A stretch of DNA of 64,000 bases from an uncultured delta proteobacterium (GCA_963735595.1 CAVTLK010000005.1:704001-768000), one strand, 5' to 3'. Shown: positions 6,637 through 33,826, numbered from the stretch's first letter. Notes: generated by a model not told the origin, from the letters alone. Made by a program: numbers and translations.

Positions 6637-6674
6637 TCATATTCTTCATAGCGTCCGCTATTACCCGGTAGAAT
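6637..6674 (+). promoter_or_regulatory. Putative late promoter of the packaging module
   Basis: TCATATTCTTCATAG-17bp-TAGAAT; same architecture at 28812 and 33789. Confidence 0.7.
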
Positions 6675-6702
6675 CGGACGTACAGATGTGGAGGTACGGA
6701 CT

Positions 6703-6933
6703 ATGTATAAAGGGGACACCTTTTTTGCGGAGCGTAATTTCGCGGTGGATTACGAGCGGGCGCTGATGGATATGCCCGACATGGAGCTCTGGATATGGCT
6801 GATGCACCGGCGGGGATACTCCCAGGGGTACATCGGCGACAGCATCGGCGTTACCCAGTCGGACGTGGCCTATCGAATCGACCGGATACAGGACTATATA
6901 AAGCGACGGGTGAATGAAGAAGAAATGCACTGA
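6703..6933 (+). CDS. Small sigma-70 region-4-like HTH protein (paralog of 24812-25066)
   Basis: GGAGG RBS; YERALMDMPD.ELWIWLMHRRGYSQ.YIG..IGVTQS.VAYRI.RI HTH pattern. Confidence 0.75.
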   Translation: MYKGDTFFAERNFAVDYERALMDMPDMELWIWLMHRRGYSQGYIGDSIGVTQSDVAYRIDRIQDYIKRRVNEEEMH

Positions 6934-7172
6934 AGAGGGGACCGGGGCCGCCCCGCCCGACGGCGGCGTCTCCCGCCGGTGACGGGGATGCCGCCGGCGC
7001 GGGGGGCGCTGACGCGGTCTTTCGGGACATCGTCAAAAAGGCCGGGGAGGGAAACATCAAGTACCAGGAGCTTTATCTCAAGTATATCGACCTCATTTCG
7101 GAAAGAAGGGACAACAAAGACGAAGTGGTTTACAAGGCGACCTTTATCGATGACGAAGATCAAGAGGCTTAA
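6914..7172 (+). CDS. Putative terminase small subunit (one frameshift, absent from the ORF track)
   Basis: Frame 3 reads DAVFRDIVKKAGEGNIKYQELYLKYIDLISERRDNKDEVVYKATFIDDEDQEA*; overlaps the TerL start; upstream ATG at 6914 is in another frame. Confidence 0.5.
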
Positions 7173-8373
7173 GCTGTACCGCCCCCACGCGGGCCAGAAG
7201 GCCCTGCACGAATCGGACGCCCGTTTCAGGGTGGCCGCGTGCGGCAGGAGGTGGGGAAAGACGCTGGCCGCCACGGCGGAGATGATCAGGCACGCCTGGG
7301 AAAGGCCGGGCTCTCTCTCGTTTTGGGTGGCGCCGGTGCTGCGCCAGAGCGCGATCGCCTTTGACCTGGTGAGGCGGGGGATGCCGCGGGGGACGGTGGC
7401 CGATATCCACAAGACCGACCGGAGGGTCGGCCTCGTCAACGGCTCGGTGCTCGAGTTCAGGAGCGCCGAGATCCCGGAAAACCTGCGGGGGTTCGGCATC
7501 GACTTCCTGGTGGTGGACGAGGCGGCCTTTCTCTCGAAGGACCTCTGGGAGGAGGTCCTGAGGCCGGCGCTTTCGGACCGGCAGGGCAAGGCGCTCTTTG
7601 TGGGCACGCCCAAGGGGAAGAACTGGTTTTTCCGCCTCTTTTCCCGTGGGATGGACAGCGAGCAGGCGGGCTGGCAGTCCTTCACCTTTCCCACCGAAAA
7701 TAACCCGTACATACGCCCGGAAGAGATCGAAGACGCGCGGCGGACCCTGCCCGAGGCGGTCTTCGCCCAGGAGTACCTGGCCCGCTTTGTCGACGACGGG
7801 GCGGGCGTCTTCTCGGGGGTCAACGACATCATCACGGGGAAACTGGCCGACCCGCTGCCCGGCGGACGGTATACGGCTGGACTGGATATCGGCAGGCACC
7901 GGGACTACACGGTGCTGACGATTGTCGACGGCAGGGGGTCGGTCGTCTACTTTGACCGCTTTTCCGGGACGACCTGGACGGCGATGAAACGGCGGGTGGC
8001 CTCGGCAATCAGGCGGTACAACCGGGCCGTCGCCTGGGTCGATTCCACCGGCGTGGGCGATCCGATCCTCGAAGACCTGATACGAATGGGCGCGGCCTGC
8101 CGGGGTTTCCGATTCACCAACGAATCAAAGTCGGCGCTCATCGAAAACCTTGTCCTCCTGATCGACGAGCGGAAGATCGGTATCCCCCCGATACAGGAGC
8201 TTATCGATGAGCTGGTGATGTTCGAGCTGAAAAACCTCCCGGGAGGCGGCGTCTCATACGGGGCGCCGGGGGGCTTCCATGACGACTGTGTCATATCGCT
8301 GGCCCTCGCCGCGTGGGGGATCAGGGGGATCAGGGTGAGCCAGTCGGACTTTGGACAAACGCTTGGTTTTTGA
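7150..8373 (+). CDS. terL: Phage terminase large subunit
   Basis: Walker A GRRWGKT, Walker B LVVDEAA, GTPKGKNWF, nuclease GLDIG, VDSTGVG and HDDCV motifs. Confidence 0.93.
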   Translation: MTKIKRLKLYRPHAGQKALHESDARFRVAACGRRWGKTLAATAEMIRHAWERPGSLSFWVAPVLRQSAIAFDLVRRGMPRGTVADIHKTDRRVGLVNGSVLEFRSAEIPENLRGFGIDFLVVDEAAFLSKDLWEEVLRPALSDRQGKALFVGTPKGKNWFFRLFSRGMDSEQAGWQSFTFPTENNPYIRPEEIEDARRTLPEAVFAQEYLARFVDDGAGVFSGVNDIITGKLADPLPGGRYTAGLDIGRHRDYTVLTIVDGRGSVVYFDRFSGTTWTAMKRRVASAIRRYNRAVAWVDSTGVGDPILEDLIRMGAACRGFRFTNESKSALIENLVLLIDERKIGIPPIQELIDELVMFELKNLPGGGVSYGAPGGFHDDCVISLALAAWGIRGIRVSQSDFGQTLGF

Positions 8374-8387
8374 TGAAAGGAGCCGGT

Positions 8388-8588
8388 ATGGATGCCGAAG
8401 TGCGGTTTACGGACGGAGAGACGCGGTCCTTCTTAAACGTGAGGTCAATAGACGTTCGCGACGGTGCGGTCATTGTCCGGCGGTGGGTCAGGGTCGTCGC
8501 GATACTGCCGATGGATACGATCCGCTGGGCGACGCTCGTCAGGCGCCGGAAGGTCTCACAGGACGACTTTGGGAAGGCCGCCCTGTAG
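8388..8588 (+). CDS. Small phage-module hypothetical protein
   Basis: AAGGAG RBS, 66 aa between terL and portal. Confidence 0.6.
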   Translation: MDAEVRFTDGETRSFLNVRSIDVRDGAVIVRRWVRVVAILPMDTIRWATLVRRRKVSQDDFGKAAL

Positions 8589-8649
8589 GGGTTCGGGCCT
8601 TCCCGCGGTTGCGGCCGGTTTACCGGCACGGCCCGCGAAAGGGAATCAT

Positions 8650-9897
8650 ATGAACAAAAACGACATGAAGCTCTTTCTTAACTATTACGACGGCTGCCGG
8701 GAGGCGATCTTCAAAGATTTCACGGTCCGCCGGGTCGCCGAAGGTCTGCCGAAAGAGCAGCGGATATCAATCAGGGACTTCTATTTTCAAAACGACATCC
8801 GGGTCATCCAGGACACGAGGGCGAACTTTATGCCGCCGACCTTCGACGTTGTCGTGACCAGGAGGGGCGAGACCGCGCCCCACGACGGGCTGACCGGCGA
8901 GGTAACGGCGTGGCTGAAGTCCCGCAACTTCGGCGGCGGCCGCACCTTCTGGGAGGCGCTGCCCGGCTACTACCTGACACAGGAGAACTACGGCACGCTC
9001 TTTTTGAAGCTCTTCGTCAGGGGCGGGGAGGTCTGTGTGCAGAAGATGTATTCCCAGGATGTGGAAGTAATCACGGACGAGAAGAACTACCTCGAAGTCA
9101 AGAAATACGTCTTCGGGTGGGAAGAGGCGGCGACGCTGGAGGGGGGAGGCGTGAGGATGTCGGTCATGCGGGAAGAGATCGACGCGGAGGGCTTCTCCTT
9201 TTATATCGACGGAAGGCTCGTAAAGAGAGAGGCGCACGCCTTCGGCTTTATCCCGGTCGTCAAGGTCCTCCGGGAGGAATCGGAGGGGAGCCCCTACGGC
9301 CGATCGGGAATCCAGGACCTGGTCGAGGGGCAGCTGGCCGTGAACATGGCGCTGACCAAGCGGGCCTGGGCTACGAAGTATAACAGCTTTCGGGTATGGG
9401 CGCCCAAGGAATCGGGCCACGTGGCGCCGGGCACGACCATCACGGTATCGCCTGGGGCGCTTTCGCCGATCCCCCTGGAGGCGGTGGGGGGCGACGTTGA
9501 CCTCTCGGCGGTGGAGCGCGAGCTCGAGGACGCGCTGGACCATCTCTACCGGATGGGATGCGTACCCCGAAAGCTCAGGGAGGAGATCGCCTCGTCGGCC
9601 ACGTCGGCAAAGGCGCTCAACACGCTGCTCGAGGGCCTCAAGCGGTACACCGAAAAAAAGCTGGTCTATCTGCGGAAAGGATTCGAAGAGCTGATAGAGA
9701 AGTCCCTTGCGGTCAGGTTCGGCACCGGCATCTTCGTGGCGACGGTATCGTTTCCGTCTCTCTCCGGCGAGGACCCCCAGCACGTGATGGCGCGGGCGCA
9801 GTTCCTGGCCGACCGGGGGTTTATGACCGAGGCGCTCAAGGAGCTCGGCTATGACGAACAGATGGTGGAGAAGATGAAGGGGAGCCAAGGCCCCTGA
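8650..9897 (+). CDS. Phage portal protein (SPP1 gp6-like)
   Basis: About 415 aa after terL; H.FGFIPVV...PYGRS.IQDL..Q.A.N motif. Confidence 0.8.
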   Translation: MNKNDMKLFLNYYDGCREAIFKDFTVRRVAEGLPKEQRISIRDFYFQNDIRVIQDTRANFMPPTFDVVVTRRGETAPHDGLTGEVTAWLKSRNFGGGRTFWEALPGYYLTQENYGTLFLKLFVRGGEVCVQKMYSQDVEVITDEKNYLEVKKYVFGWEEAATLEGGGVRMSVMREEIDAEGFSFYIDGRLVKREAHAFGFIPVVKVLREESEGSPYGRSGIQDLVEGQLAVNMALTKRAWATKYNSFRVWAPKESGHVAPGTTITVSPGALSPIPLEAVGGDVDLSAVERELEDALDHLYRMGCVPRKLREEIASSATSAKALNTLLEGLKRYTEKKLVYLRKGFEELIEKSLAVRFGTGIFVATVSFPSLSGEDPQHVMARAQFLADRGFMTEALKELGYDEQMVEKMKGSQGP

Positions 9898-10118
9898 TCC
9901 AAAGGCTGGAATTGCGGCCGGCAGTCAGCGGCCGGGCCGCGGGCGGTCCGGCGAAGCGACGGGGCCGCCGTCCCATAGGGGGCGGCGGCCCCGTCGTATT
10001 TAAAACGCGGTACGTGCGATTATGGCACCCTGCTGCGGCCTCTCCAATCGCTTCTGAAATTCCGTTGACATATCGCCTGTTTCTGATATTCTTAATAACA
10101 ATAACTATCGGTGATCCG

Positions 10119-10901
10119 ATGATCATTTACTGCCCGGCATGCGGCTTCAGGGGTAGGGTCCCGGAAGGCAAAGACGGACGGGATAAGAAGCGCGTCATCT
10201 GTCCGTCGTGCGGCCACCGGTTTTCCGTCGGTCTGGTTGTTGTGCCATCCGGCGATCAGCCGACCGCCGGTGGGGCCTATACCGCACCGCCATACCGGGA
10301 CGGAAAGAAAAAAAAGCGGCGCCTGTTTCTCTGGGGCTGTCTTATTGCCGCTGCCGCCCTGGCGATCGGGATCGGGATCTTTTTCCTCATCAATGGAATC
10401 TCCCGGCAGGTCCAGGAAAGCAAGGAATCCGATATCCTGAAGAAACTCGGTGAAAAATACCCGGAGTATCTCCTGCTCAATTCCATCGCAATCGATCCCG
10501 GTTCCATGACCGAGCTCCAGATCACCTCGTACCAGGGGGGCCTTGTCGGTAAGGGATGCGTGGGGATGGGTACCGTCGTGAATATCGAAAAGACGATGGG
10601 GTCGACCGTGCTCGATTTCTTCGGCCTGACCGCGCCGGGAACGATCATCACCCTTACCTTCAAGGGGTATGACATCGAGCTGTTGCTGGATGAATCGTAT
10701 TCAGATGAGTTCCTTACCTATGGTGTCGGGGACACGGTCCTTTTCGCGGGAATCATAAAGAAGGCGGTGATCGACAGGCGGACGCGCGTCGCCCTTGTCG
10801 ATGTGATCATTGAGGGGCACCGAAAAGGAGAGCCCGGCTCGCGCCCCCCGGAAATCAAGAAGAGTCTTACCAAACGCCTTATTGAACTTTTGCTGCAGTA
10901 G
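10119..10901 (+). CDS. Zinc-ribbon (MJ0042-type) membrane protein
   Basis: CPACG...CPSCG N-terminus, one TM, possible OB-fold C-terminus; upstream TTGACA-16-TATTCT. Confidence 0.7.
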   Translation: MIIYCPACGFRGRVPEGKDGRDKKRVICPSCGHRFSVGLVVVPSGDQPTAGGAYTAPPYRDGKKKKRRLFLWGCLIAAAALAIGIGIFFLINGISRQVQESKESDILKKLGEKYPEYLLLNSIAIDPGSMTELQITSYQGGLVGKGCVGMGTVVNIEKTMGSTVLDFFGLTAPGTIITLTFKGYDIELLLDESYSDEFLTYGVGDTVLFAGIIKKAVIDRRTRVALVDVIIEGHRKGEPGSRPPEIKKSLTKRLIELLLQ

Positions 10902-10935
10902 CGGCCGGTTTGCTTCGCACGTATGCGGGGAGGTT

Positions 10936-11847
10936 ATGAAAACACAGTGTCCTGAATGCGGCTACGAGGGGGACATCAAAGACGACCTGATTCCGGAGGG
11001 AGGCAGGACCGTCGGGTGTCCCCAGTGCAAGGCTACATTTGCGGTCAAAAAAGACGGCGCCATAGTGAGGCCCGCGAAAAATAACAACGCGCGGCCTGAA
11101 GTGGACGTGGATGGAAGGGATTTCATACCGTTCAGGCAGCGTGAGGAACGGGTTTCGCGTGCGCGAGCAGACCGCATGGTTACCCGTATCGCCGTTTTTG
11201 CATTATCCCTGTCGGCCGTCTTCGTAATCGGCTTTTTCATTGGAAGATATACTCACGATTATACGCTCAACAACCCGCTCAACAAAAAGGGGACCGCGCC
11301 CGCCGGCCTCATGACTCCGGCGTCGCCGGCCGGTGAACCTTCGACAACAGCGGTGGGAGATTCCATTTCCACGGCCCCCATCAACACACTCGACACCGAT
11401 ACCGCACAGCCTTCGGAGCCACTCATCCTCGAGGAGAGCTTCACCAGCGACGTCTTTCTTGATATCACCGAAATCGACGGGAAGCTAAACGAGGAGACCG
11501 AGGTGACCGGCCTTCAAAGGGAGCTTGATCTCAAGGGATTCGCACAGGACCTCGTAGGGAAAATGCTTGTCGGTTATTTCACCGTCAGGGACGTCGGCAA
11601 GCTAAGCCCGATGTACGCGAAGACGCTTCCCCTTACGCTCTACAGCTATGACATTGAGGCCGAGGCGGAATCGGATAATCCGATAAGGAGCGTGGTTTAT
11701 GTCGGGCTCAAACAGGCCGACGAGCTGTCTTCCTCCCTCGATAGGGGAAGCAGGGTTTATATCCAGGGGTTTATCTATAGCTGCGTGCTCGTTTCCGATC
11801 ACTTTGAGCTGGGTATCGTTAATTCGAGAGTGGAGCCGAGCAGGTAG
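10936..11847 (+). CDS. Zinc-ribbon (MJ0042-type) membrane protein
   Basis: CPECG..I.DD.IP.GGR.V.CPQC..F, one TM. Confidence 0.7.
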   Translation: MKTQCPECGYEGDIKDDLIPEGGRTVGCPQCKATFAVKKDGAIVRPAKNNNARPEVDVDGRDFIPFRQREERVSRARADRMVTRIAVFALSLSAVFVIGFFIGRYTHDYTLNNPLNKKGTAPAGLMTPASPAGEPSTTAVGDSISTAPINTLDTDTAQPSEPLILEESFTSDVFLDITEIDGKLNEETEVTGLQRELDLKGFAQDLVGKMLVGYFTVRDVGKLSPMYAKTLPLTLYSYDIEAEAESDNPIRSVVYVGLKQADELSSSLDRGSRVYIQGFIYSCVLVSDHFELGIVNSRVEPSR

Positions 11848-12022
11848 CTGTTTCGTCCGCCTATATCCGGAGACCGGTATCGGATTGGCCTGGGCGGCAG
11901 GCCAAGACAGCGGAGTGGATGGGGCATGCCGACCATCGGGCTAAAGACGGTCGCGTGATAAATTCAGCGAATTCTTTTTGCCGTTTGCGCATCTATATAA
12001 CAATATATAGGGAGGTATTGTT

Positions 12023-12220
12023 ATGAAAAAGAATGTAGGAACCGTGGATCAGGTCATTCGATTCATCATCGGCGCGGTCATTATCGCAGTGGGCTATTAC
12101 TATAGCAGCTGGTGGGGGCTCCTGGGCCTTCTTGTACTGGCGACGGCGACCTTCTCGTTCTGCCCGGCATATGTACCCTTCGGAATCAATACCTGCGAGA
12201 CAAAAAAGAAGAAAAAGTAG
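12023..12220 (+). CDS. DUF2892 (YgaP-like) membrane protein
   Basis: MKKNVG.VD..IR...FCP.Y..FGINTC. Confidence 0.85.
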   Translation: MKKNVGTVDQVIRFIIGAVIIAVGYYYSSWWGLLGLLVLATATFSFCPAYVPFGINTCETKKKKK

Positions 12221-12239
12221 TCTGCCTTTTTAAGGGGGA

Positions 12240-12272
12240 AACGGGGTATTTGAAAGAATGCCCCGTTTTTTT
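12240..12272. terminator. Intrinsic terminator
   Basis: AACGGGGTATT/AATGCCCCGTT stem followed by a T-run. Confidence 0.7.
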
Positions 12273-12310
12273 TGTACGGCCCGAAGGCCGCTCCGGGACT
12301 AACGGGAGAT

Positions 12311-15300
12311 TCAGGTTTTAACCGCACATCTCAGCTTAAGAAGGATTACCGCATCACCGATAAGCGTCTCTACGACTTCAATACTCTTCTTGAGATTGAC
12401 TTCATTCTGATGTTGTATAGACAGTTCACTGATCAGGTATTCCTTCGGCTGGCTGGGTCTTTTCATTTCTCGCTCGAGAGTCCTAATCCTTTTTGAGACG
12501 GCTTCCATGTATCTATGCTTCTTGGACCGGAAATCCCTGATGTTTGGAGATATCTCGATGTTCGATGCGGAGAGGGCCAGCCGCACCTTCTTTTTTTCTT
12601 CCCTGTTACTCCGTATCAACATTCGAGACGAAAAGCGGTCAAGAAACGGCACGTTGGATTCTTCCAGGAGCGATCGCAGCTTATTGAGGTTGGTATCCAT
12701 GGTCCCGGCCCTGATGATGTCTTTATCAACCCACCCTCTGCCGTCCGACTTCATGCGTGCGGCAAGGTAGATAAGACGGGCAACCGCCGACTCGGACCTT
12801 GCCAGCCGTTTGAGCACGTGTTCCCTTGGGTATTCATCCCACCTGAGGGTAATGAGGAAGGCATCCTTCTGAACATCAATGGAAAGGGAGAAGGGATAGA
12901 TATAGTTCGGGTCCAGCGGCGCCAGGAATATCTCGGAGCTTCCGTCATCCTCGATGTCGTCGTCGAGTTGTGAAAGACTCTCGGTAATATCAAGGAGATT
13001 CTTTGACGTGATACCGCCGATGCTGACGGCAATACCGGTTATACTACCCGAAAGATCGGGCACCGGGTACGCGGTAATCCTGCGGTTCTTGCCAAAACAG
13101 GATATGGAATCGTTCTTCTCGATCCGGCCGGCAGAGAGAGAAGAACGGCGGGACACCCCTCGCACGGAGTGTCCTTTTGGCACAACATCTCATGGCAGAG
13201 GCGGCCCACCATCTCTTCGATCGGAAGGCCCGTTAACTGGGACATGGCGCTATTGGCCCACGTTATCTTCAGGGATAGATCGGCAAAGAAGACCATATCG
13301 GACAGGCTATTCAAAACGGCCTCCTGGCTTCCCGCCACGAGCCTGAGCCGGTCTTCCATCTTTTTACGGTCGGTTACGTCCCTTCCAATCCCCCGAACCT
13401 CGACGATCTTTTCTTCCTCCCATTTCAGTTCGTCATTGAATTCGATCGTTCGGACTTGCCCGTCTTTTCTGACAATGTCAAGCTCATAACCGTGAAGCCG
13501 GGTTCCGGTACGCTGGAGGCGGAAGAGCTCCTGCGCATATTTCTTTGAGGAGGGGCCGTAGAACTCGTAGAAGTTCCTCCCGATTACTTCGTCCGGCTCG
13601 TATCCCAACTGCCGTACCGCGTTGTTCACGAACTTGAGATTTCCCTTGAAGTCGGCCACATAGATCATGTCGTTTGTGCTGTCTACCAATTCACGATATT
13701 TCTGTTCGGATTCGGTGAGGGCGGCTTTCGCCTCTCTGCGGGCGACGGCCGTTCCGATTATTGAGGAGACGGTCTGGAGCAGGAGGATATCCTGCTCGTC
13801 CCAGACGCGCTCTATCTCGTAGTCGTCAAAACCGATGAAACCCCAGAATGTATCGGCAACGAAGATCGGGATCATTATGCTGGATAATGAACCGATGATT
13901 GTAAGGATCTCGCGGTCAATTGGGGGGTAATCTTTTGTCGGCCCTCCGAACCAATGACCGTTACTCAACGCGTCGAACATCTCTGGGGAGCGGTATTTGT
14001 ATGCCACCTTGTCCGGTATCGGGAAGTCAAGCGGCGGCCTATTGCGGTCGTTCATCGCCTCAGCAATAGTCAGCATGCTGATGCCTTCGACGGGGTCCAT
14101 TATGTTCTTGCAGATGAAGACGCCGCCGACTCCCAGTTTCTCAAGGAGATGGCGGACTATGTTTTGCATCGTCAGTTCGAGGTCGGCCAAAGGGACAAGC
14201 TCACGAGAACAGAAGGCCACGGCCTGCTCGTAACGAAGTCGTCTTTTTATTTCCTCTTCCGCGTCAACTTTCTCGGTTATATCGGAGACGAAACTCAAAA
14301 TCGAGGGTTGCCCCTCCCACATAATCGGGATCCCGTTGACCTCGATACAGCGTAGATTTCCCCTGGCATCGCGCATGCGATACCGGTAGAATGGCAGAGC
14401 TTGTTCTCCGGAGCTCAACCTTCCGAGTTCGTCATGCAGTTTTTCCCGGTCGCTTCTGAGAACCAGGTCAGAGAGATGCCTTCCAAGCAGTGCGCTCGGT
14501 GGAACCCCGAAAAGAGTCATGACACGGTTGTTGGCAAATTCGACGATTCCGTTTCGCGTTATGACGATGATTTCGTTGGCATTCTCGACGACCAGCCGGT
14601 ACTTCTCCTCCGATTCCCTCAGGGCGTCCTCGATTCGCTTCCGTTCGGTGATATCGGTGGCGATGTTGAGGGCGGCCGGCTTTCCTTGCCATAGGATAGG
14701 CACGATGCTGTTTTCAGTCCATATAATGTTACCATCCTTAGTGACAAGACGCATGACTAGCGGCGGGGGTGTTTTTTCCCCTTGCTTGAGCCTTTGCCTG
14801 TGCTCGACCAGCAGGTGACGGTCGTCCGGGTGAACGAGGTCGATTGTCGGTGTCCCCAACAGCTCGTCTTCACTGTAGGAGGATACGGCCAGAGCCTTCG
14901 TGTTAACAAGCCGTAAGGTGCCGTCAACAGATACCGTGATTATCTCGTTGGCGTTTTCAACAACAAGGCGGTACTTCTCCTCGGATTCTTTCAGGGCATC
15001 TTCGATCAACTTCCGTTCCGAAATATCGGTGGCAATTACAAGTGCGGCGCGTTTCCCCTGCCAGATGAAGGGCACTACGCTGTTTTCCATCCAGACTATC
15101 GTGCCGCCCTTGGTGAGCATACGCGCGGTGAAGAACTGGGGCTCCGGATCGCCCTTATCACGTTTACTTCTATGGTCAAGGACGAGTTTGCGGTCATCGG
15201 GGTGAAAAAACTCGATGATCGGGGTGGACGCCAGCTCTGCTTCCGAATAGCCGAATAATTCGGAGGTCTTCTTATTATAGAGCGCTAAATACCCATCCAC

Positions 15301-24811: not shown

Positions 24812-25066
24812 TTAATTTTTCCTAATACGGGGATCACCCGTCTCCAACCGGCCGGTCACTCGTCGCCTAAAATGACGCTCTATCTTCTTAATCCGATGAC
24901 TGACCGCTGATTGGCTAAGGTTGAGCTTTCGGGCGATCCATTCCTGACTCTTACCGGCCCGGTGCATCAGCCAAACGAACAGATCATCGTCGGGGAGTTC
25001 CATAAGGGCCTTTTCGTATCGAGAGAAGAAGGTTTCCGATGGGAGGTAGCAATCGGGATTAAACAT
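24812..25066 (-). CDS. Small sigma-70 region-4-like HTH protein (candidate activator of the phage-like modules)
   Basis: AGGAG RBS; YEKALMELPD..LFVWLMHRAGKSQEWIA.KL.LSQSAVS.RIKKI; paralog of 6703-6933. Confidence 0.75.
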   Translation of the reverse strand: MFNPDCYLPSETFFSRYEKALMELPDDDLFVWLMHRAGKSQEWIARKLNLSQSAVSHRIKKIERHFRRRVTGRLETGDPRIRKN

Positions 25067-25098
25067 ATACTGACTCCTTTTGTGTATGACCGGACGAT

Positions 25099-25266
25099 AC
25101 AATATGAAATAGTTCCCAATATGTCAACACGAGTCTTAGTCGATATCCCACTTATGGCAACTATTTGCTCTGGAATATTCCCAATACGTCAACTAATCCC
25201 CGATTATCTCGACTTATTTAGGTGTGTACGAATATAGTTGACATAACAGAAACTTACTACTACTAT
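25099..25266. promoter_or_regulatory. Divergent promoters with an array of 17-bp operators
   Basis: Minus strand TTGACA(25127-25122)-17-TATTGT; plus strand TTGACA(25238)-17-TACTAT; repeats of GTTCCCAATATGTCAAC type. Confidence 0.75.
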
Positions 25267-25272
25267 GGTACT

Positions 25273-25821
25273 ATGAGCGACGGAGAAAATATTAAGAATA
25301 TACGAAGAAAGAAGGGATTAACCCAGGAAGAGCTCGGGGGGTTGTTAGGCGTCGGGAAATCGGCCGTCAGCCGGTGGGAATCGGGCGAGCGAGAGGTGAC
25401 GCTGGGTACGATGCGAGGCATCGCCACCGCCCTCGGCGTCCCCCTCGAATGGCTGGTGGAAGGGCTCGACTCTTCGGATGACCCTCCTATAGACGAGCAA
25501 AACCGCGGCATTCGTAAGAAAGATGGTACTATCTATGATTCAGGGCAGCTCAACGTCAGATCGAACGTGGACGAAGCATCGCACCGGATACCCGACGCGG
25601 CGGACCCCGATCATATTGGAGCCGTCTCGGAAAGGCAGGAGAATTTCAACGATCGGTCCCAAATATACCTCACCATACCCCGGATTGATGATCCCGAACT
25701 GATATCGGCTTTCGAGGGTTTCAAGGAATTGGATAAACTGACTCCGTCTGATATCGACGACATCAAGGCGATTCTAAAGATCGCCCAGCGGATTATCGAG
25801 AAACGGAGAAAGCTGGAGTAG
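25273..25821 (+). CDS. XRE-family HTH transcriptional repressor
   Basis: IKNIRRKKGLTQEELG.LLGV.KSAVSRWESGER; no S24 peptidase domain. Confidence 0.9.
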   Translation: MSDGENIKNIRRKKGLTQEELGGLLGVGKSAVSRWESGEREVTLGTMRGIATALGVPLEWLVEGLDSSDDPPIDEQNRGIRKKDGTIYDSGQLNVRSNVDEASHRIPDAADPDHIGAVSERQENFNDRSQIYLTIPRIDDPELISAFEGFKELDKLTPSDIDDIKAILKIAQRIIEKRRKLE

Positions 25822-25977: not shown

Positions 25978-27660
25978 ATGAAGTTCCTTGATGCACACGA
26001 GATTACGATGCAGAACCTTCTCCTGGATAAAAACCGGGCATATAAGGTTCCGATCTATCAACGGCCTTACGTCTGGAACGAAGAACAATGGCAGGAGCTT
26101 TACGACGACCTGCTGGGGTTGGCCGATTCAGATGTCCATTTCCTGGGTTCCGTGGTCGTTGTAAGCGATCAGAAGACAAGTGCCGCCGTGGAATATTACC
26201 AGGTCGTAGATGGGCAACAACGCCTGGCCACGATCCTGATATGGTTGGCGGCCCTGCGGGACTCCCTCAGGCAACGCGGCGAAACGGAGCTGGCCGACTA
26301 CCTGACCGGTTTCCTCTTTATCACCCAATACAGCGACGGGCAGTTCATCAGGATTCCGAAACTCACTCTCGGCGAATTCGACAACCCGCTCTTTCAGGAA
26401 ATCCTCGAGGGGACCCCCCTCCGAGCGAACGAGAGCCTCCTGAATAAATGCTATGCCTATTACCGTGATAAGAACGAGGAAGATATTCTATCCGGCCTCC
26501 TCAATAAGATTTCCATCGTACATATCAATGTATTTTCACATCTCAACGCCTTCCGGCTTTTCGATACCCTCAACGATCGAGGGTTGGAGCTTTCCTCCGT
26601 TGATCTGGTCAAGAACTTCCTGCTCATGAAGGTATCCGGTATACGCGAGATATTCGACGAAACTATCTTCTTGTGGAACGAGATGTTCACAAGGGTCAGG
26701 GATAAGGACCCGGTTAAGTTCCTCAGACGCTACGTGCTGTCCCGGTTTAAGGGAAAGGTCCCCGAGGCCCGCCTCTATGAGAAGATTATAGTTGCCCTCG
26801 CTCATGCCGAACCGGCCGACATTAAGGCCTTTACCGCCGATATGGCCGAAAAGGCGGCAATCTACGATAAGATCGTTCGGGCCGGGTTTTCGTCGGAGGC
26901 CGTAAACCGACGCCTTAAGAATCTCCACCTTGTTGAGGTAACGCCTTCTTATTCCCTTCTCCTTCCGGTTTTTTCGGCTTTTGAGGCCGGGACTCGAAAT
27001 ATATCCGAGCAAGACGTTTGCGATATCCTTCGCGCCATCGAGGCGTTCCACATTCGCTGGGGGATCTCCGGCCGCTTTACCGGAAACCTTGATCAAATAT
27101 ACAACACGATCTGTCTCGAGCTTGCGGGCCACGACCCATCCCAATATCGCGAGTTCATTACAAATACGCTCGCAGAGGAATTGCTGGAAAACGGCATTGA
27201 TGACAGAACGTTTGCCCGCAGCTTCATCACCCGACCCTTCAAAGGTAACGAGTCTCGGACTAAATATATACTCTTGACGCTTTCGCAGCTCATGAAACCG
27301 GACGAACAGCCGGTGGATGTCGGCCTTGTTACCACCGAACACATCATGCCGGTGGTGCTTGGAACGCGGTGGCGGGAAGAACTTATCAATGAAGTGAGAT
27401 CAAAAGATGAGATTCTCAAGCTTCATCGGGAAAACATGGGTCGTATCGGGAACTTAACCCTCGTCACCGGAGACTGGAATTTGGGGCACTCCAACCGTGC
27501 ATTCTCCGAGAAAAAGGAGAAGAAATACTACTGGGACACGGAGCTTGCTATTACTAATACCTTGTTGAGTTACGACCGATGGGGATTCGAACAGATCGAT
27601 CGACGGAGCCGTGAGCTCTTTGATCTTGTAAAAAAGAGCCGGCTTTGGAAAATCGCGTAA
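25978..27660 (+). CDS. DUF262-DUF1524 (GmrSD-like) nuclease, putative defence protein
   Basis: VP.YQRPY.W, VVDGQQRL.T, F.TLNDRG, EHIMP, IGNLTL...N. Confidence 0.85.
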   Translation: MKFLDAHEITMQNLLLDKNRAYKVPIYQRPYVWNEEQWQELYDDLLGLADSDVHFLGSVVVVSDQKTSAAVEYYQVVDGQQRLATILIWLAALRDSLRQRGETELADYLTGFLFITQYSDGQFIRIPKLTLGEFDNPLFQEILEGTPLRANESLLNKCYAYYRDKNEEDILSGLLNKISIVHINVFSHLNAFRLFDTLNDRGLELSSVDLVKNFLLMKVSGIREIFDETIFLWNEMFTRVRDKDPVKFLRRYVLSRFKGKVPEARLYEKIIVALAHAEPADIKAFTADMAEKAAIYDKIVRAGFSSEAVNRRLKNLHLVEVTPSYSLLLPVFSAFEAGTRNISEQDVCDILRAIEAFHIRWGISGRFTGNLDQIYNTICLELAGHDPSQYREFITNTLAEELLENGIDDRTFARSFITRPFKGNESRTKYILLTLSQLMKPDEQPVDVGLVTTEHIMPVVLGTRWREELINEVRSKDEILKLHRENMGRIGNLTLVTGDWNLGHSNRAFSEKKEKKYYWDTELAITNTLLSYDRWGFEQIDRRSRELFDLVKKSRLWKIA

Positions 27661-27762
27661 GACGAGTCCCCACCTTCTCACGTTAGAAACGGAGAAAACC
27701 GGCCGGTCGAGTGGCCACGGAGATATTCGTGGAATGTTGTGAATCGAAATGGAGATAATCAG

Positions 27763-28137: not shown

Positions 28138-28725
28138 CTACCCGCGCCCAAATCGGTTGAGATGGAGGATCCGTTCCATCGTCCGCTTCGGTACCCGGTG
28201 GGAACCCGCCTCATCCTGATAATACCGAACGTCGCTTCCTTGGGTATCCTCGGCCGCCGGCTTCTGAGCCGGATATCCCACCGCGATCATCGCGTCAATC
28301 TCGTATCCGGCGGGGATCGCCAGTAGACTGCGAATTTGATCACGATCGATATTGCGGATGAAGCACGCGCCAAGACCGTGCGCAACGGCAGCCAACAGCG
28401 CGTTTTGAACGGCGCATCCAACATCGTATTCATACCCGGATTTCATGATCGTCGTATTGACGAGCACCGCGATATAGGCGGCCGGGCGTACCTCGGCCAC
28501 CGGCCGCTCCTTCTGCGGTAACAGCGCGCCCATCCGGGTATATGGAAAGAGCCCGGAGACCGTGATTTCATCATCGACGACGATATATTCGAGGGGCTGA
28601 AGGTTAACCGCCGATGGGGCAAGCCGGGCGGCGTTCACCATCTCCAGGAGTAAGGCCCGATCCACCAGCCTTTGATCATACCTGCGAATGCTCCGTCTGG
28701 TACGGATCGCAGAGATTACGTCCAT
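28138..28725 (-). CDS. Nitroreductase family protein
   Basis: I.TRRSIRRY, APS..N.QP, GLG.C, VGYP. Confidence 0.9.
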   Translation of the reverse strand: MDVISAIRTRRSIRRYDQRLVDRALLLEMVNAARLAPSAVNLQPLEYIVVDDEITVSGLFPYTRMGALLPQKERPVAEVRPAAYIAVLVNTTIMKSGYEYDVGCAVQNALLAAVAHGLGACFIRNIDRDQIRSLLAIPAGYEIDAMIAVGYPAQKPAAEDTQGSDVRYYQDEAGSHRVPKRTMERILHLNRFGRG

Positions 28726-28811
28726 AATTTCTCCACTTCATATGTCGTTAAACTTCTTACGTATTCTGCTTCGTAAGCCTAATGTATCGGTTATAAAATG
28801 TCCATCGAAAT

Positions 28812-28849
28812 TCATATTCTCAATAGTCCGACCGCCCCAGCCGTACAAT
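28812..28849 (+). promoter_or_regulatory. Putative late promoter of the head module
   Basis: TCATATTCTCAATAG-17bp-TACAAT. Confidence 0.7.
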
Positions 28850-28881
28850 GATCATCAAGAATATCTTGGAGAGGAGTACGT

Positions 28882-29592
28882 ATGGTTGATGCTAACAGGT
28901 TTAGTATTTCAAGGCCGTCGGCGATTGCTGCCGATCCCGCACTAATCCGTTCGGGTATCGAGCCGGCGGCATCTGGCGGTGGCGCGCCGTCCGGTGGTGA
29001 TGCGGTAGAAACGGGTGATGGTTTTGATACTGCGCCGCTGGAGCGGCTGGTCCAGCTACTGGAGGCCCTTGCGGAACGGATTGAGACCCTCACTGAATTG
29101 ATGGCGCCGCTTGGCGAGAAACCGTGTGCGGACGGGGATAGCTCTTCGAGGGAGGTGATAGCCCGGGAAATTGAAGCGGCCGCCGACGCGCTGATCTACA
29201 CGGATTTTTTCCAGAAGGCCGTTGAACTCGGAATGAGCCCTAACATGGTTGCCGACGCCTATAAACTTGCCGACCTGACGGGCATAACGGCTAATCTGGA
29301 GACCAAGGAGGTAATTGGTACGAATGCGGCGGTCAATACCCTTCTTGAGAAGAGGCCGTATCTTTTCATCGTCCATCAGGTCGACATCGGAACGGAGACC
29401 AATCCAGTTAAAGGGCCGTCTTCTCATCCTGACGAGGTTGAGGGCCTGGCGCGGACGCTCGGAGTAAGCCCTGAGTTCGCCGCCGCGCTTGTCAGGAAAA
29501 GGTCGGACAAAGTGCGCGGCGATGTGGCGCTCTCCGACATATGGAGGATCCCGCGCGCCAACAGGCTTTCGTTTCTCGAAAACAAAGAATAG
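28882..29592 (+). CDS. Putative capsid scaffolding protein
   Basis: Low-complexity N-terminus, coiled coil, DAYKLADL.GI...V.G...AV..LLE.RPYLF; first gene of the head operon. Confidence 0.6.
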   Translation: MVDANRFSISRPSAIAADPALIRSGIEPAASGGGAPSGGDAVETGDGFDTAPLERLVQLLEALAERIETLTELMAPLGEKPCADGDSSSREVIAREIEAAADALIYTDFFQKAVELGMSPNMVADAYKLADLTGITANLETKEVIGTNAAVNTLLEKRPYLFIVHQVDIGTETNPVKGPSSHPDEVEGLARTLGVSPEFAAALVRKRSDKVRGDVALSDIWRIPRANRLSFLENKE

Positions 29593-29610
29593 TCCTAAAG
29601 AGGAGTACAC

Positions 29611-30087
29611 ATGGCAACTTACATGAAATATGGTTACAGCTACGGTCCCCGGGTCGTTGTCACGGCCAGAGTGGCGGATACCGGCACGATTGATGACGGC
29701 GATATCGTCGTCTTGGACGCGGTGGGTGGGGCCGCCGGAGCTGGATACATCAAGAAGTGGAGCGCCGCGTCCGATCCCATCGTGGGTGTCGCTCTTGAAA
29801 AGGTCGAGCAGAAGCCCGATGCAGACGGCGATGAATCCATACAAATCGTGCTGGCGATACCGGGTAGCGTCTTCGTTTATCCCGCCCAGGGCGTCGGGCG
29901 GGGCCATTGCTTCCAGACCTGCGATATCAACGGGCCCCAGTCGGTGAACATTGCGGCCGATACCTACAAGAACGCCTGGATCATCGAGGTTGACGAGGAA
30001 ATGGGTTTGGCCTATGCGATGCTGAAGGGGCCGTTTTCGGAAAACGATACCGGATCGGACATCGACTACGGCACGGCAGGTGCCTAA
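29611..30087 (+). CDS. Putative capsid decoration/cement protein
   Basis: I..GD.V.L...IVGVA beta-rich pattern; lies between scaffold and capsid genes. Confidence 0.5.
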   Translation: MATYMKYGYSYGPRVVVTARVADTGTIDDGDIVVLDAVGGAAGAGYIKKWSAASDPIVGVALEKVEQKPDADGDESIQIVLAIPGSVFVYPAQGVGRGHCFQTCDINGPQSVNIAADTYKNAWIIEVDEEMGLAYAMLKGPFSENDTGSDIDYGTAGA

Positions 30088-30108
30088 TAACACAATAGGA
30101 GAACGTGT

Positions 30109-31092
30109 ATGGGAATTATGGTATCAGGCAATTTTCCCGAGCTTCTTACCCAGGATCTCTACGAATGGTATTTCGAATCATACGACGCCGAAGGAACGGT
30201 CTATGACAAGATCGTCGAGGTCGTGCCGGTATCGACGGGAGACGGGATAAAGGGTACCGAGGTTATCGGGGTTTCCCGGCTCAAGGAAGTCCCGGATGGG
30301 CAGGAGATACCGCTCACCGAACCCTCCGAGGGATGGACCTGGTATATCAAGTTCAAGACGTACAAGGACCAAATCGCGCTTACCGACGATATGCTGAGTG
30401 ACCTCAATGCGGGGAAACTTAACGCCGATCTCATGGAATTTGCCAGGGGCTGGGGCGAAGGAGTCAGGATTACCGAAGAGGAGGCGGTTGCCCGAGTCTT
30501 CAATAAGGGTGCGATGGGGGCCGGCGACCGTATCGCGTTTAACGGCTCGTTCACCAACAACGACGATCCGTATCCGAAGTTCATTTACGACGGAAAGGGA
30601 TTCTTTGGGGCCGGGGCGGACGGCCACCCCTTTAAGCTCAAAGGCTCAGTCAGACTGAATAACCTCACTACGAGCCTGGATATGAGCTACGATACTATCC
30701 AGACCGTCTATTCGGCGATGGCCGTTACCAATGCGGTAAACGAGCGGGGAGAGCGGGTCAAGATCGAGCCCAATGTTATCGTTACCAATCCCAAGAACCG
30801 ATTTGTCCTTGATCAGATTCTACAGTCCGTCTACGAGATAGACGCCTACGGGAACAAGAATGTCCTGGAAGGGATGTTTACACCGGTTTACTGGCGGTAT
30901 ATCGAAGACGATAACGCCTGGTACATGGGCGTGGCTCGTCGGGGTGTTCGTTTCTATGACCGCCAGCCGGCCAAGATCACTGTCTACCGTGACGAGGCCA
31001 CCGATACCTGGTTTGCCAAGATAAAACGACGTTTCGGTGTTGGCGTGGTCCAGTGGCGCTATTGGTACGCGTGTAACGTGGCCACAAGTTGA
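30109..31092 (+). CDS. Major capsid protein (HK97 fold, Mu gpT-like)
   Basis: 327 aa; NFPELL, L.EVP.G.EI, Y...IALT..M..D, E..VA.VFN, YDGK.FF...HP, NERGE.V.I.P..IV, AWY. Confidence 0.8.
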   Translation: MGIMVSGNFPELLTQDLYEWYFESYDAEGTVYDKIVEVVPVSTGDGIKGTEVIGVSRLKEVPDGQEIPLTEPSEGWTWYIKFKTYKDQIALTDDMLSDLNAGKLNADLMEFARGWGEGVRITEEEAVARVFNKGAMGAGDRIAFNGSFTNNDDPYPKFIYDGKGFFGAGADGHPFKLKGSVRLNNLTTSLDMSYDTIQTVYSAMAVTNAVNERGERVKIEPNVIVTNPKNRFVLDQILQSVYEIDAYGNKNVLEGMFTPVYWRYIEDDNAWYMGVARRGVRFYDRQPAKITVYRDEATDTWFAKIKRRFGVGVVQWRYWYACNVATS

Positions 31093-31110
31093 TTGGGTAC
31101 TATTTTTGGT

Positions 31111-31128
31111 GGGGAGGGAAACCTCCCC
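31111..31128 (+). terminator. GAAA-tetraloop hairpin after the capsid gene
   Basis: GGGGAGG-GAAA-CCTCCCC with only a weak U-tail. Confidence 0.45.
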
Positions 31129-31150
31129 CGTTGCTATTAAGGAGACGGGC

Positions 31151-31438
31151 ATGGCGATTATCAGCGATATTCAGGTTTCGAAACACGGTTGGTTTTCCAA
31201 CGATGTTATTAAGGCACTCACCGATTCGTTCGTGGAGTTTGAATTCGGGTTCGCCTCTTTTTCCATCACGGTTTTCAATGACGCCGAGAGCGGTTGGATC
31301 GAATACTCGTTTGACGGACCTAACGCTAATGGAAGGGTAATGCCGGGGGAAACGCGGAAGATGGACTTCTGCCGTCACGGGGCGATATGGCTGCGGGGGG
31401 AGAGCGGGGCCGAACCCTATCGCTTGGAGGTCTACTGA
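31151..31438 (+). CDS. Phage head-module hypothetical protein
   Basis: AAGGAG RBS; TGATG coupling to the next gene. Confidence 0.6.
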   Translation: MAIISDIQVSKHGWFSNDVIKALTDSFVEFEFGFASFSITVFNDAESGWIEYSFDGPNANGRVMPGETRKMDFCRHGAIWLRGESGAEPYRLEVY

Positions 31439-31644
31439 TGGGATTCACGAAAGAACAGCTGGGTGCCGTGGAGGCCGAGATCGCTTCCCTTAAGGCCGGC
31501 ACCTTTTCAATAGGCCAGCTGAGCGTTGACCAGGAAAAGACTCTGGCCGCGCTCATCCGTCTGCGGGAGGTCATGATGGCCGATCTGGCCGGCAGCGAAG
31601 GGATAAGGTTTGGCAGGGCCATGATCGACGGAATGGACAGGTAG
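31438..31644 (+). CDS. gpW-like head-tail joining protein
   Basis: 68 aa; FT.EQL.AVEA.IAS...L..L..LR..M..DL helix-hairpin-helix pattern. Confidence 0.6.
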   Translation: MGFTKEQLGAVEAEIASLKAGTFSIGQLSVDQEKTLAALIRLREVMMADLAGSEGIRFGRAMIDGMDR

Positions 31645-31740
31645 CAATAACGAATTGAAAGATGATCGGTCCATTTGGTTGCATGGTCGTCGTTTAGACG
31701 GCACCTGTAAGGGCTCGAGTGCGTTGGTAGTTTCTAAGCT

Positions 31741-31778
31741 GGGCGTCCGGAATCTTATACGCCGGAGGCCCGTTTTTT
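31741..31778 (+). terminator. Intrinsic terminator of the head module
   Basis: GGGCGTCCGG...CCGGAGGCCC followed by GTTTTTT. Confidence 0.6.
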
Positions 31779-31927
31779 AAGTTCCGTTTTATGCATCCGG
31801 ACTACCTGTACTGTGACCCTTGGGTCGCCCGGATGGTTAGATGTCGTGGATTGAATGAAGTTACCGTAGCGAAACAAGTTAAGGAGGCATCGACATACCA
31901 AACGGCCCAAGAGCTGGAATATTTCTT

Positions 31928-31957
31928 TTGACAGGAAGCTGACGGGGAACCTATAAT
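31928..31957 (+). promoter_or_regulatory. Consensus sigma70 promoter
   Basis: TTGACA-18bp-TATAAT. Confidence 0.75.
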
Positions 31958-31990
31958 ACTATCTAATTGTATTTATTGGGTGGTAACACA

Positions 31991-33433
31991 ATGAAACGGG
32001 CCATTACCATCTCGGTATGCGTAATCGCCATAGTCTCTGCGGCAGCCGGTATTTCTCCCGTTTACGCCTGGACCGAGCAGGGCTATCTTAAGGGTACGGG
32101 GGATTCGTCTTCCTTCACGATTACAAGCCCCGGTCCAACGACCGATTTCACGGTTTTCTACCCGAAGGGATCGGTTGATTTCTGGGTCAGTACTGTTGAT
32201 CAGTCGGGTACCGTCAGCAGATACGACCTGGACAATTGGGACTCGATTCGGTTAACCGGCGCGGGTCTCTTCACGGTTACCGTCTATTCGAGGAGCGGTG
32301 CGGGCAACTGGACCGTCGAGTTAGATCTTGCTACCTCCCCGCCGGTGTCCTCACCTACCGACGCCGTTCCTGTGCCACCTTCCACCCCGCTTTCCAGCAA
32401 TCCTTCGCCCAAATCCGGTGAGGTTACCATCAACGGCAGGCTTGCGGGACCGGGGGATACCCATGTCTTTCGGATCCCGACCGAATCGAGCTATGTCGAA
32501 GTGGCTTTCTATTATCCGAAAGAGACCATGTCTCTCTCGGTCAGGGTGGTGGCCGATGATAAACGGACGGTGCTTGGTCAGTATGACCTTGATAAAGGTG
32601 AAATAATCGAGCTCTATGGCGGGGGCAATTTCTATCTAACCGTCTACTCCACGAGGGGTTCGGGAGGATTTATGGCGAGGTTCAATCCTGCGGGGTCTCC
32701 TATCCCCCAAACCTATATTATTGCCGAGGGCGATCTTAAAGGAGGAACTGATAAACAAGAGTTTCCATTTGATGCTAAGACCGATGGGATCAGCATTTAT
32801 TTCGACAGCCCGGCAAGAAGTGCGGATATCTGGGTAAAAGTAATTGCTGAAGATGGGAAGAGGATTCTGGGTGATTTCGATCTGAAGAACGAAAAGATCA
32901 TTGACCTGAACAAGAAAGGAAAATATCTGATAACCGTCTACTCGCGGAGTGGTGCCGGTTCGTTCACCGCTTTCTATTTCGGCGGCCCGCCAGCCGAGAC
33001 CGTAGCACTCGGCACAAGCCCGTCCGAAGGAGAAAGCCCGGCGGTGCCCCTGGCGCCGAAGTTCCCACCCTTCCCTGACAAAGCAAAGCTTCCTTACGGT
33101 ACGAGTCTTGAAACGGGTTATCTTTCCGGTCCCGGCGAATTCAGAACGTTCATTATCAACGCTAAAATCGATTATGTTGAAGTTACCTTTAGCTATCCGA
33201 AGGGGACGGCTGATTTTTGGGTCAGGGTCATTGGCGAAGACGGCATCGAGGTTTTAGGTGACTTCGACCTTGATAACGGAGAAATCATTCAGCTTATGGG
33301 TGCGGGGACTTTCTACCTGAAGGTCTATTCAAAGGAAGGTGCGGGCAATTGGAGCGCCGTCTACCGTGAGGGAACCGGTGATCCCTATAGTGCTCCTAAC
33401 GGGATTTCCAACCGCCCCCGGTATAGTTACTAA
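31991..33433 (+). CDS. Secreted protein with four repeated beta-sandwich (PPC-like) domains
   Basis: Signal peptide; four copies of G.L.G...YPK..DFWV.V...G.(Y/F)DLD....I.L.G.G.F..VYS.(S/E)G.G.(W/F); Pro-rich linkers. Confidence 0.7.
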   Translation: MKRAITISVCVIAIVSAAAGISPVYAWTEQGYLKGTGDSSSFTITSPGPTTDFTVFYPKGSVDFWVSTVDQSGTVSRYDLDNWDSIRLTGAGLFTVTVYSRSGAGNWTVELDLATSPPVSSPTDAVPVPPSTPLSSNPSPKSGEVTINGRLAGPGDTHVFRIPTESSYVEVAFYYPKETMSLSVRVVADDKRTVLGQYDLDKGEIIELYGGGNFYLTVYSTRGSGGFMARFNPAGSPIPQTYIIAEGDLKGGTDKQEFPFDAKTDGISIYFDSPARSADIWVKVIAEDGKRILGDFDLKNEKIIDLNKKGKYLITVYSRSGAGSFTAFYFGGPPAETVALGTSPSEGESPAVPLAPKFPPFPDKAKLPYGTSLETGYLSGPGEFRTFIINAKIDYVEVTFSYPKGTADFWVRVIGEDGIEVLGDFDLDNGEIIQLMGAGTFYLKVYSKEGAGNWSAVYREGTGDPYSAPNGISNRPRYSY

Positions 33434-33711
33434 ACATATCGATAGCTTTTCATCCCGAACTTTATGCAATCGTTGCTATATCACCCCCTAAGCTGGTTTC
33501 TTGTGCTGGTCGTTAAATTTCGCTGGGCAGGGGCGGGCCTGCCTGTCGAATGCCCTACGTTACGGTGAAAGTGATAAGAGTAGCGGGCGGCTGGAGGAGA
33601 TAGTAGATCTCCCTCAAAATAGGAACACACAATAACAACTGAGTTTATTTCCAGGACGATAAGAATGATCTAACGGCATTGTATAGTCGTTGGTAGAGCT
33701 GCTTATTATTT

Positions 33712-33743
33712 GGGCGGAGGAAATACTTACTCCGCCCCTTTTT
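33712..33743 (+). terminator. Intrinsic terminator
   Basis: GGGCGGAG...CTCCGCCC followed by CTTTTT. Confidence 0.65.
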
Positions 33744-33788
33744 ATGTTTCTTCCGGCCACACCCTCCCTTTTTGTCGATATTCGCAAT

Positions 33789-33826
33789 TCATATTATTCA
33801 TCTCAACATGCTTCGCGTGACATAAT
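33789..33826 (+). promoter_or_regulatory. Putative late promoter of the tail/lysis module
   Basis: TCATATTATTCATCT-17bp-CATAAT. Confidence 0.65.

Follow-up and report, generated by a model that had tools for sequence, protein, structure and literature searches.

Why should separated blocks of phage structural genes in a bacterial chromosome each be preceded by the same promoter-like element at the same spacing? The question is raised by a stretch of 64,000 nucleotides (G000:C5:704001-768000, referred to in full as the window) from the 3.63 Mb genome (G000) of an uncultured bacterium of the sediment-dwelling family Ca. Zymogenaceae (Desulfobacterota). The element, a direct hexamer repeat set at a fixed distance from a -10 box, appears on balance to be an activator-dependent late promoter of scattered virion blocks, likely read by a small phage-derived protein resembling region 4 of sigma factors (sigma-4). 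Judged from sequence, its sites are very probably functional promoters and the modules behind them are those of a domesticated siphovirus, while the system as a whole is probably a gene transfer agent (GTA) carrying host DNA between cells.

Promoter element

Three strings with 17-base spacers had been picked out in a sequence-only reading of the window, and all three are present (6637-6674, 28812-28849, and 33789-33826). As that reading held, the three spacers share no sequence, and the sites lie 5′ of the first genes of three modules, namely HTH1-TerS-like-TerL-portal, scaffold-decoration-capsid, and closure-terminator-tube, where HTH1 is one of two small helix-turn-helix (HTH) proteins. The direct repeat is also borne out, but its conserved unit is a YTHATA hexamer recurring at nine bases rather than the 7-mer TCATATT, and a fourth, degenerate copy had been overlooked. 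The sites are as follows:

6636..6674, + strand: late-promoter site 1; hexamer repeat, 17-base spacer, -10 TAGAAT; predicted start ~6681
28811..28849, + strand: late-promoter site 2; -10 TACAAT; predicted start ~28856
33788..33826, + strand: late-promoter site 3; TG-extended -10 CATAAT; predicted start ~33833
35646..35684, + strand: fourth, degenerate site; in phages, the chaperone and tape-measure genes lie at this junction

The predicted leaders of sites 1, 2, and 3 are 22, 26, and 174 bases long. The consensus of 29 distinct sites, 18 of them genomic and chosen by a -10 pattern and 11 metagenomic and chosen by a matrix, reads YTHATA, three variable bases, a YTHATA-like hexamer, one base, 17 unconserved bases, and YANAMT. 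With the -10 box placed at -12 to -7, the hexamers occupy -45 to -40 and -36 to -31, positions -39 to -37 vary, and A-11, A-9, and T-7 are invariant across these sites. The sequence TTGACA is absent from the motif sites, whereas the neighboring host-type promoters retain it, that of gltX in eight of nine genomes and those of XRE (a repressor gene) and HTH2 in nine of nine, with one variable last base; the motif is therefore not the ordinary -35 of this organism. A conserved -10 and a poor -35 overlapped by a repeat at fixed distance (-45, -36) are features of class II sigma70 promoters. The retained -10, missing TTGACA, fixed spacing, and diverged spacers thus fit the activator-dependent late promoters under selection that had been proposed for these sites.

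A scan of the window allowing at most one mismatch returned three sites against none in 100 shuffles, a test that is circular on its own, since these sites and their orthologs supplied the pattern. When a matrix is built from 15 sites of relatives, with G000 and its near twin left out (G003), the three sites take the top three ranks genome-wide (29.3, 25.9, and 25.4, the next scoring 17.8). The training sites had been picked by a motif-derived pattern, so this test is not fully independent, but the blocks are equally apparent in plain alignments. Local shuffling of the genome, repeated 40 times, gave a top score of 25.3, with no more than nine sites in all at 22 or above. The two lower-scoring sites barely exceed this null maximum singly, while three together never occur in the shuffles. 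The fourth site, at 11.2, scores at background level, and the case for it is its orthologous position.

The motif is thus not widespread before unrelated genes. The forecast of the sequence-only reading that a genome-wide scan would disclose missing modules such as the tape measure locus was not borne out, with none emerging. A strict-pattern match at C5:561382 (score 17.1) precedes a TetR-like gene with its own TTGACA and was taken as chance. The best match at another spacing, C5:925143 (22.2, 18 bases), was set aside as it lies in an AT-rich island, before a gene with its own TTGACA and with no virion gene near; the other 10 listed off-spacing matches were judged from downstream starts of open reading frames (ORFs) only. 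The island itself (G000:C5:921500-930500) carries helicase-, methylase-, antitoxin-, and transposase-like ORFs, named from a look at their sequences only.

Conservation of the element

Orthologs of the three main sites, with the spacing retained, occur in four genera of Ca. Zymogenaceae. At site 1 the spacing is exact in eight of the nine genomes examined (18 bases in G003), at site 2 in all seven with the region assembled, and site 3 is exact and strong in five of six with the region, being weaker in G008. The distance stays fixed while the spacer sequences diverge between genomes. The exact pattern occurs 18 times in the nine module-bearing genomes, 17 of these being module starts, compared with a single match in 26 genomes of other families and two matches of the reversed pattern in all 36. 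The 18th match, in G007, precedes a 108-amino-acid (aa) ORF near the repressor, and its G004 ortholog has a near site with 16 bases. These 105-108-aa ORFs (G007:C48:64362-64783, G004:C190:1623-2055) have a hydrophobic N terminus and may be an extra regulon member; no counterpart was found in the window's genome.

In metagenomes, the motif was present at 12 of 12 HTH1 loci (two of which equal training sites and two equal each other), at none of seven HTH2 loci, and at neither of two distant-homolog loci. The fourth site has the same position and spacing in G001, G003, G004, and G006, and is one base shorter in G008. In G002 the tube and distal-tail genes abut without a gap, and a motif site appears one gene later. 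The main sites have thus been kept, and the tail-tip sites have turned over. The earlier suggestion of promoters kept or rebuilt after the modules separated therefore applies in both senses, the main sites being orthologous and the tail-tip sites shifting with gene order.

Virion modules

The genes that follow the four sites are these:

6703..6933, + strand: HTH1, stand-alone sigma-4-like protein, acidic paralog of HTH2; first gene of the packaging operon
6914..7172, + strand: small-terminase-like (TerS-like) ORF, so named from its position; frameshifted here, intact in 8 relatives
7150..8373, + strand: large terminase; Pfam Terminase_6N/6C, phrog_2 (E 9e-47); ortholog in 9 of 10 genomes
8388..8588, + strand: conserved 66-aa ORF, in all 9 genomes compared; ratio of nonsynonymous to synonymous substitution rates (dN/dS) 0.10-0.33
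8650..9897, + strand: portal, SPP1-like by a weak match (PF05133, E 7.5e-5; phrog_104, phrog_64)
28882..31644, + strand: head module, beginning with a scaffold-like gene, 28882-29592 (phrog_2303, weak)
29611-30087, 31151-31438, and 31438-31644, + strand: decoration-like gene, 95-aa ORF, and connector-like gene, named from position
30109-31092, + strand: major capsid (PF25209, E 5e-16); single-copy at 74-99% in 8 of 9 relatives
34007..35628, + strand: neck and tube block, beginning with a closure-like gene, 34007-34348, named from position
34387-34836, + strand: tail terminator, matching gp17 tail-completion clusters at 0.95
34861-35628, + strand: tail tube (phrog_807, E 3e-17), followed by no chaperone or tape measure
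35779..42094, + strand: tail-tip module with a distal-tail-like gene (35779-36171), a 489-aa tip protein, and a hub-like gene (41451-41825)
within 35779..42094, + strand: ~1090-aa tip protein, interrupted by frameshifts in this assembly but whole in G001, G006, and G008
42091..43585, + strand: lysis module with holin-like ORFs, endolysin (42309-42755), and a spanin-like pair

The TerS-like ORF has a short conserved core and a variable, low-complexity N terminus; no HTH was seen in it, and family searches gave no significant match and weak Atlas leads only. The endolysin has a Peptidase_M15_3 domain (phrog_894, E 3e-10), while the holin and spanin names come from hydrophobicity and gene order. 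The frameshifts in the TerS-like ORF and the large tip gene are probably sequencing errors, because gltX and rpoD are also broken and the relatives are intact. Indel errors of the assembly are suspected in gltX (4984-6481), the TerS-like ORF (6914-7172), the large tip gene (38152-41450), and rpoD (G000:C1:497500-500300).

Other features lie around the modules. Two secreted-looking ORFs, tandem paralogs whose N termini are nearly identical (3499-5137), gave no family match, the second being apparently frameshifted. In genera g1 and g4, a conserved secreted-looking repeat protein (31988-33433) is encoded between the head block and the tail block and has no motif site of its own. G008 has an extra fiber-like gene of at least 663 aa after the hub (G008:C103:11409-13398) with no match in the window's genome. 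Between G000 and G003, the distal-tail and tip genes (35779-37650) have synonymous divergence (dS) of 1.0-1.1 and other genes mostly 0.1-0.4, which suggests exchange of tail-tip alleles.

Domestication and inheritance

Capsid, terminase, HTH1, and HTH2 each have one ortholog in nine of the 10 family genomes. The capsid was found in none of 31 other Desulfobacterota families sampled, its closest match among 50,697 phage records stands at 21.5%, and scans of viral contigs found no relative. The host neighbors are fixed in four genera, with packaging opposite gltX, head opposite a nitroreductase gene, and HTH2 opposite XRE and before an LCP gene. Across four genome pairs dN/dS is 0.03-0.37, with dS mostly like that of flanking host genes, and the head-gene and host-gene trees do not differ in any well-supported split. 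The virion genes are thus vertically inherited under purifying selection, as in GTAs.

An active or recent prophage, which would be contiguous, patchy, variable in site, and matched by free virus, was rejected on the fixed host neighbors and on the lack of a relative in viral contigs. Among the 78 window ORFs scanned, none is a replication, integration, or excision gene, integrases not having been surveyed genome-wide. G005 was tried as a negative control and dropped, as it also lacks the gltX, DUF401, and LCP neighbors and its region is probably unassembled. Three capsid homologs at 56-62% identity (P0224, P0226, and P0227) may come from free phages akin to the head donor; two of the three are encoded on contigs of 47-48 kb.

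Tape measure and possible nature of the particle

In phages RS138 and PCA1, the tape measure sits between the tube gene and a homolog of the distal-tail gene, and the tail-tip homolog comes after it. In the window the corresponding gap is 150 bases, in G002 it is ~15, and an independent metagenome contig crosses it unbroken. A comparison is offered by G007:C16:1-36869 (36.9 kb), a temperate prophage that looks complete; its tube, tip, and lysis genes are 27-52% identical and in the same order, the tail-tip module being syntenic at 27-46%. It carries a 179-aa gene in the chaperone position and a 275-aa gene in the tape-measure position, neither of which was found in the other nine genomes at E 0.1. 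This prophage looks like a living relative of the tail donor, with a very short gene in the tape-measure position; its replication-region genes had no match near the modules.

Among tape-measure family models, PF10145 gave no match and PF20155 one below threshold. Weak matches to phrog_2335 in seven of 10 genomes include none convincing as the module tape measure. Five of these look like a single non-module locus that is also present in G005 and probably encodes a coiled-coil host protein, so they were rejected; of the remainder, one is in the prophage and one in G008. The complete head-tail set expected of a GTA thus lacks a tape measure by Pfam, PHROG, and prophage queries, a very divergent or unassembled one being possible at a genome completeness of 93%. 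In two genera (G008:C103:4449-4793; G004:C287 ~850-1150), the tube gene is succeeded by a small ORF and then by a terminator-like hairpin and the fourth site; the ORF has no family match and is possibly a chaperone remnant.

The chance that the particle transfers genes stands about level. A substantial minority chance falls on a product other than a GTA, made under the same regulation, such as a particle that kills or acts as a decoy in the manner of PBSX, or heads and tail tips that serve separate uses; this estimate concerns the product only and overlaps with the best explanation. With no tape measure or chaperone found, there would be no normal tube or ejection channel, which is evidence against an ordinary DNA-injecting particle. 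The tail module was found in seven of 10 genomes and not in G005, G007, or G009, and the failure to find it in the last two points the same way. The layout of repressor and sigma-like activator also resembles that of PBSX as described in the available text of PMC8347963. However, conservation is strongest in terminase, portal, and capsid, no module for a contractile sheath was seen, and the TerS-like ORF is without the HTH that the prophage TerS possesses, as reported for GTA terminases in the accessible parts of PMC6854486 and PMC11841831. The TerS-like profile was also compared with that prophage TerS, with no match.

Proposed regulatory switch

The candidate regulators lie between the packaging and head modules:

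24812..25066, - strand: HTH2, stand-alone sigma-4-like protein, candidate late activator (predicted local distance difference test score of the model, 80.8)
25112..25253, no strand assigned: four operator-like 17-mers of GTTGAC-N5-GTCAAC type, at 25112, 25145, 25177, and 25237
25273..25821, + strand: XRE-family repressor, divergent from HTH2; HTH_3, the G007 ortholog matching phage repressor PHROGs

HTH1 and HTH2 are 41% identical proteins of 73-90 aa with four helices. The best fold matches of HTH2 are sigma region-4 domains (E 0.1, root-mean-square deviation ~1.6), each weak singly, and there are weak HTH matches to models of extracytoplasmic function (ECF) sigma, SigE, and PRK06930, as well as a sigma-F match. 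Both proteins possess region 4 only and no region 2, in contrast to an alternative sigma factor with its own regulon. A sigma-E-type promoter was also rejected, since its -10 and spacing differ and no region 2 accompanies the HTHs. HTH1, present in nine of 10 family genomes, has a net charge of -3 to -6 in seven of eight orthologs and an Asp in the recognition helix, and is encoded behind the motif itself; HTH2 is basic in six of eight and is encoded behind the repressor. A Gln at the start of the recognition helix (Gln52 in HTH2) is invariant in both paralogs and aligns with a Gln in sigma-F and, weakly, with the first Arg of TRE in the host RpoD. In the accessible text of PMC517825 and PMC3789822, a region-4.2 Gln of sigma-E specifies ATA at -35 and an Arg of sigma-K specifies AC. 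Close full-length HTH relatives are few outside the family. A homolog is an early gene of the G007:C16 prophage (hhalign 86.7%, E 4e-6), and a different organism has an HTH2-like gene facing a CI-type repressor and ahead of a replication-protein-like fragment, with no motif (L140:2956-4261).

The -35 boxes of HTH2 and XRE fall within the outer two 17-mers, and 17-mers of this kind are present in all seven metagenomic HTH2 loci. In six of nine genomes, the XRE start codon lies seven bases past the -10 (25238-25275), predicting a leaderless mRNA. An ImmA/IrrE-like protease gene stands beside XRE in G004 and G007, while in the window's genome it is frameshifted and far from the modules (G000:C2:641278-641750). 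In genus g1, the repressor gene is followed by one for a GmrSD-family restriction endonuclease (25978-27660).

From this arrangement a sequence of events may be proposed. The XRE repressor would sit on the four operators, over the -35 boxes of both its own promoter and the HTH2 promoter, until a stress signal led the ImmA/IrrE-like protease to cleave it. HTH2 would then occupy both hexamers head to tail (-45, -36), replacing the missing TTGACA, and the host sigma70 would open the -10. The packaging, head, tail, and lysis blocks would be transcribed in concert, with HTH1 from the first late transcript tuning the response, and the product would be a non-replicating particle packaging host DNA. 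It is likely that the motif is read by HTH1, HTH2, or both, and HTH2 is slightly favored as the trigger.

In a first alternative, HTH1 reads the late promoters by positive feedback, or an HTH1-HTH2 pair does, while HTH2 by itself regulates the switch as a Cro-like protein. The Gln and the fold are common to both proteins, HTH1 is as well conserved as HTH2, the two half-sites could accept two different subunits, and HTH2 lies directly opposite the repressor both here and in a distant remnant. Being behind the motif, HTH1 cannot initiate its own synthesis without a leak, and it is acidic in a way that extends to the recognition helix; moreover, the palindromic operators suit an XRE dimer, and the C16 prophage has a separate Cro-like gene, with its HTH homolog further down the early operon. 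This alternative is unlikely. Decidedly less likely is that a host factor reads the motif, whether one of the four ECF-type sigma factors that the genome encodes along with a LuxR-type regulator or some unlinked activator of the host, in the manner of alphaproteobacterial GTAs that host regulators control; domesticated elements do often come under host control, as established for RcGTA and CcGTA. Each genome has only three strong sites, all at virion blocks, the -10 is sigma70-like, none of seven host PF04545 region-4 matches has Gln at the position of Gln52, and both HTHs co-occur with the modules in all nine genomes with the region assembled. A repeat acting as an operator, with TG-extended -10 promoters held off by a repressor over the -35, is very unlikely, for although a TG precedes the -10 at sites 3 and 4 and direct repeats over a -35 can repress, sites 1 and 2 of the window's genome lack both TG-N and TTGACA, and a 17-base distance fixed across diverging spacers is expected for polymerase contact and not for occlusion.

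Several points weigh against late promoters activated by HTH2 and serving a vertically inherited GTA. By position HTH2 corresponds to Cro, and it may be a repressor. The prophage HTH homolog is without the Gln, and motif sites in that prophage score at most 8.8, so that the phage provides no independent link between protein and motif. The equivalence of the invariant Gln to sigma-E Gln217 is presumed, with support from the sigma-F match and a weak RpoD match. The ImmA/IrrE-like protease was not found in G005 or in G006, the latter of which has the modules. The conservation counts come from kin and are not independent samples. Between G000 and G003, tail genes have dS of 1.0-1.1 against 0.1-0.7 for host genes, and such raised values in some pairs imply that tail genes recombine. 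One metatranscriptome, from four of 24 listed sequencing runs examined, yielded a few short contigs, all from relatives at ~85-92% identity, in which starts are not resolvable and DNA is not excludable.

Taken in its fullest form, the HTH2-driven scheme would describe a new Desulfobacterota GTA lineage without a tape measure, switched by a lone, tandem region-4 domain that displaces sigma70 region 4 at the -35 and uses the host -10 machinery, with an acidic feedback paralog and new promoter copies at each operon break; that all of this should hold together is unlikely. GTAs are hard to distinguish from dead prophages by sequence, and a shared promoter at exact spacing before separated blocks is direct evidence of one selected, co-regulated machine and offers a way to find the parts of such systems. 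The repressor, operators, activator, and four targets are compact enough to be rebuilt in a laboratory strain, which opens an uncultured lineage to experiment. Should the particle work with no tape measure, it would show a minimal DNA-delivery tail, and if a lone sigma-4 domain replaces sigma70 region 4, this would be a new mode of activation.

Comparison with known systems

No description of the element was found in the open literature, subscription papers and bioRxiv supplements falling outside that search, and the main text of the class description, in its accessible part, makes no mention of phage or gene transfer.

PBSX of Bacillus subtilis is a non-replicating resident phage with an Xre repressor opposite an early unit that includes a sigma-like activator of the structural genes, and it packages host DNA (available text of PMC8347963). 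The window likewise has an XRE gene with multiple operators opposite an activator gene, and the HTH proteins weakly match PRK06930, 'positive control sigma-like factor' (best E 4e-4, 9 of 16). However, Xpf-like proteins are ~170 aa in length, compared with 73-90 aa, region 4 only, and a sigma70-type -10 here, and in place of a contiguous cluster with a contractile tail there are three to four blocks with one promoter each, a Gram-negative host, and a tail that looks non-contractile, its tube and tip matching siphovirus genes. The only sheath-like signal in the window is a 2e-4 sheath-domain match on a 90-aa ORF. Being dispersed and non-contractile, the system is not a PBSX member.

With the GTAs RcGTA, CcGTA, VSH-1, BaGTA, and Dd1, the modules share vertical inheritance, several loci, and apparently a content of packaging and structural genes only, and the GTA small terminase is described as having no DNA-binding domain (both from the accessible parts of PMC11841831 and PMC6854486). 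They differ in the tape measure, which was not found here. The CcGTA activator contacts RpoD, according to the available text of bioRxiv 2023.11.12.565669, and by analogy with GafY the HTH activator here may do so too; the GafY element lies ~120 bases upstream with IHF, whereas the element here replaces the -35.

The G007:C16 prophage has the same order of tube, tip, and lysis genes and an early HTH homolog. It differs in having CI and Cro-like genes, replication-type genes, a TerS with HTH, and no motif site, and its head (portal-protease-capsid) is unrelated by tblastn to that of the window.

Lambda CII and the ArpU/RinA/LtrC proteins, all small HTH proteins of phages, activate sigma70 promoters from direct repeats on or close to the -35, the ArpU/RinA group turning on the terminase-to-lysis operon. 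No ArpU, RinA, or LtrC model is among the NCBIfam and Pfam matches listed for the HTH proteins. Compared with these systems, the element described here has a nine-base period, a proximal half on the -35 itself, several dispersed targets, and two paralogous regulators, and on the sequence evidence it marks a real, conserved regulon of a domesticated phage.

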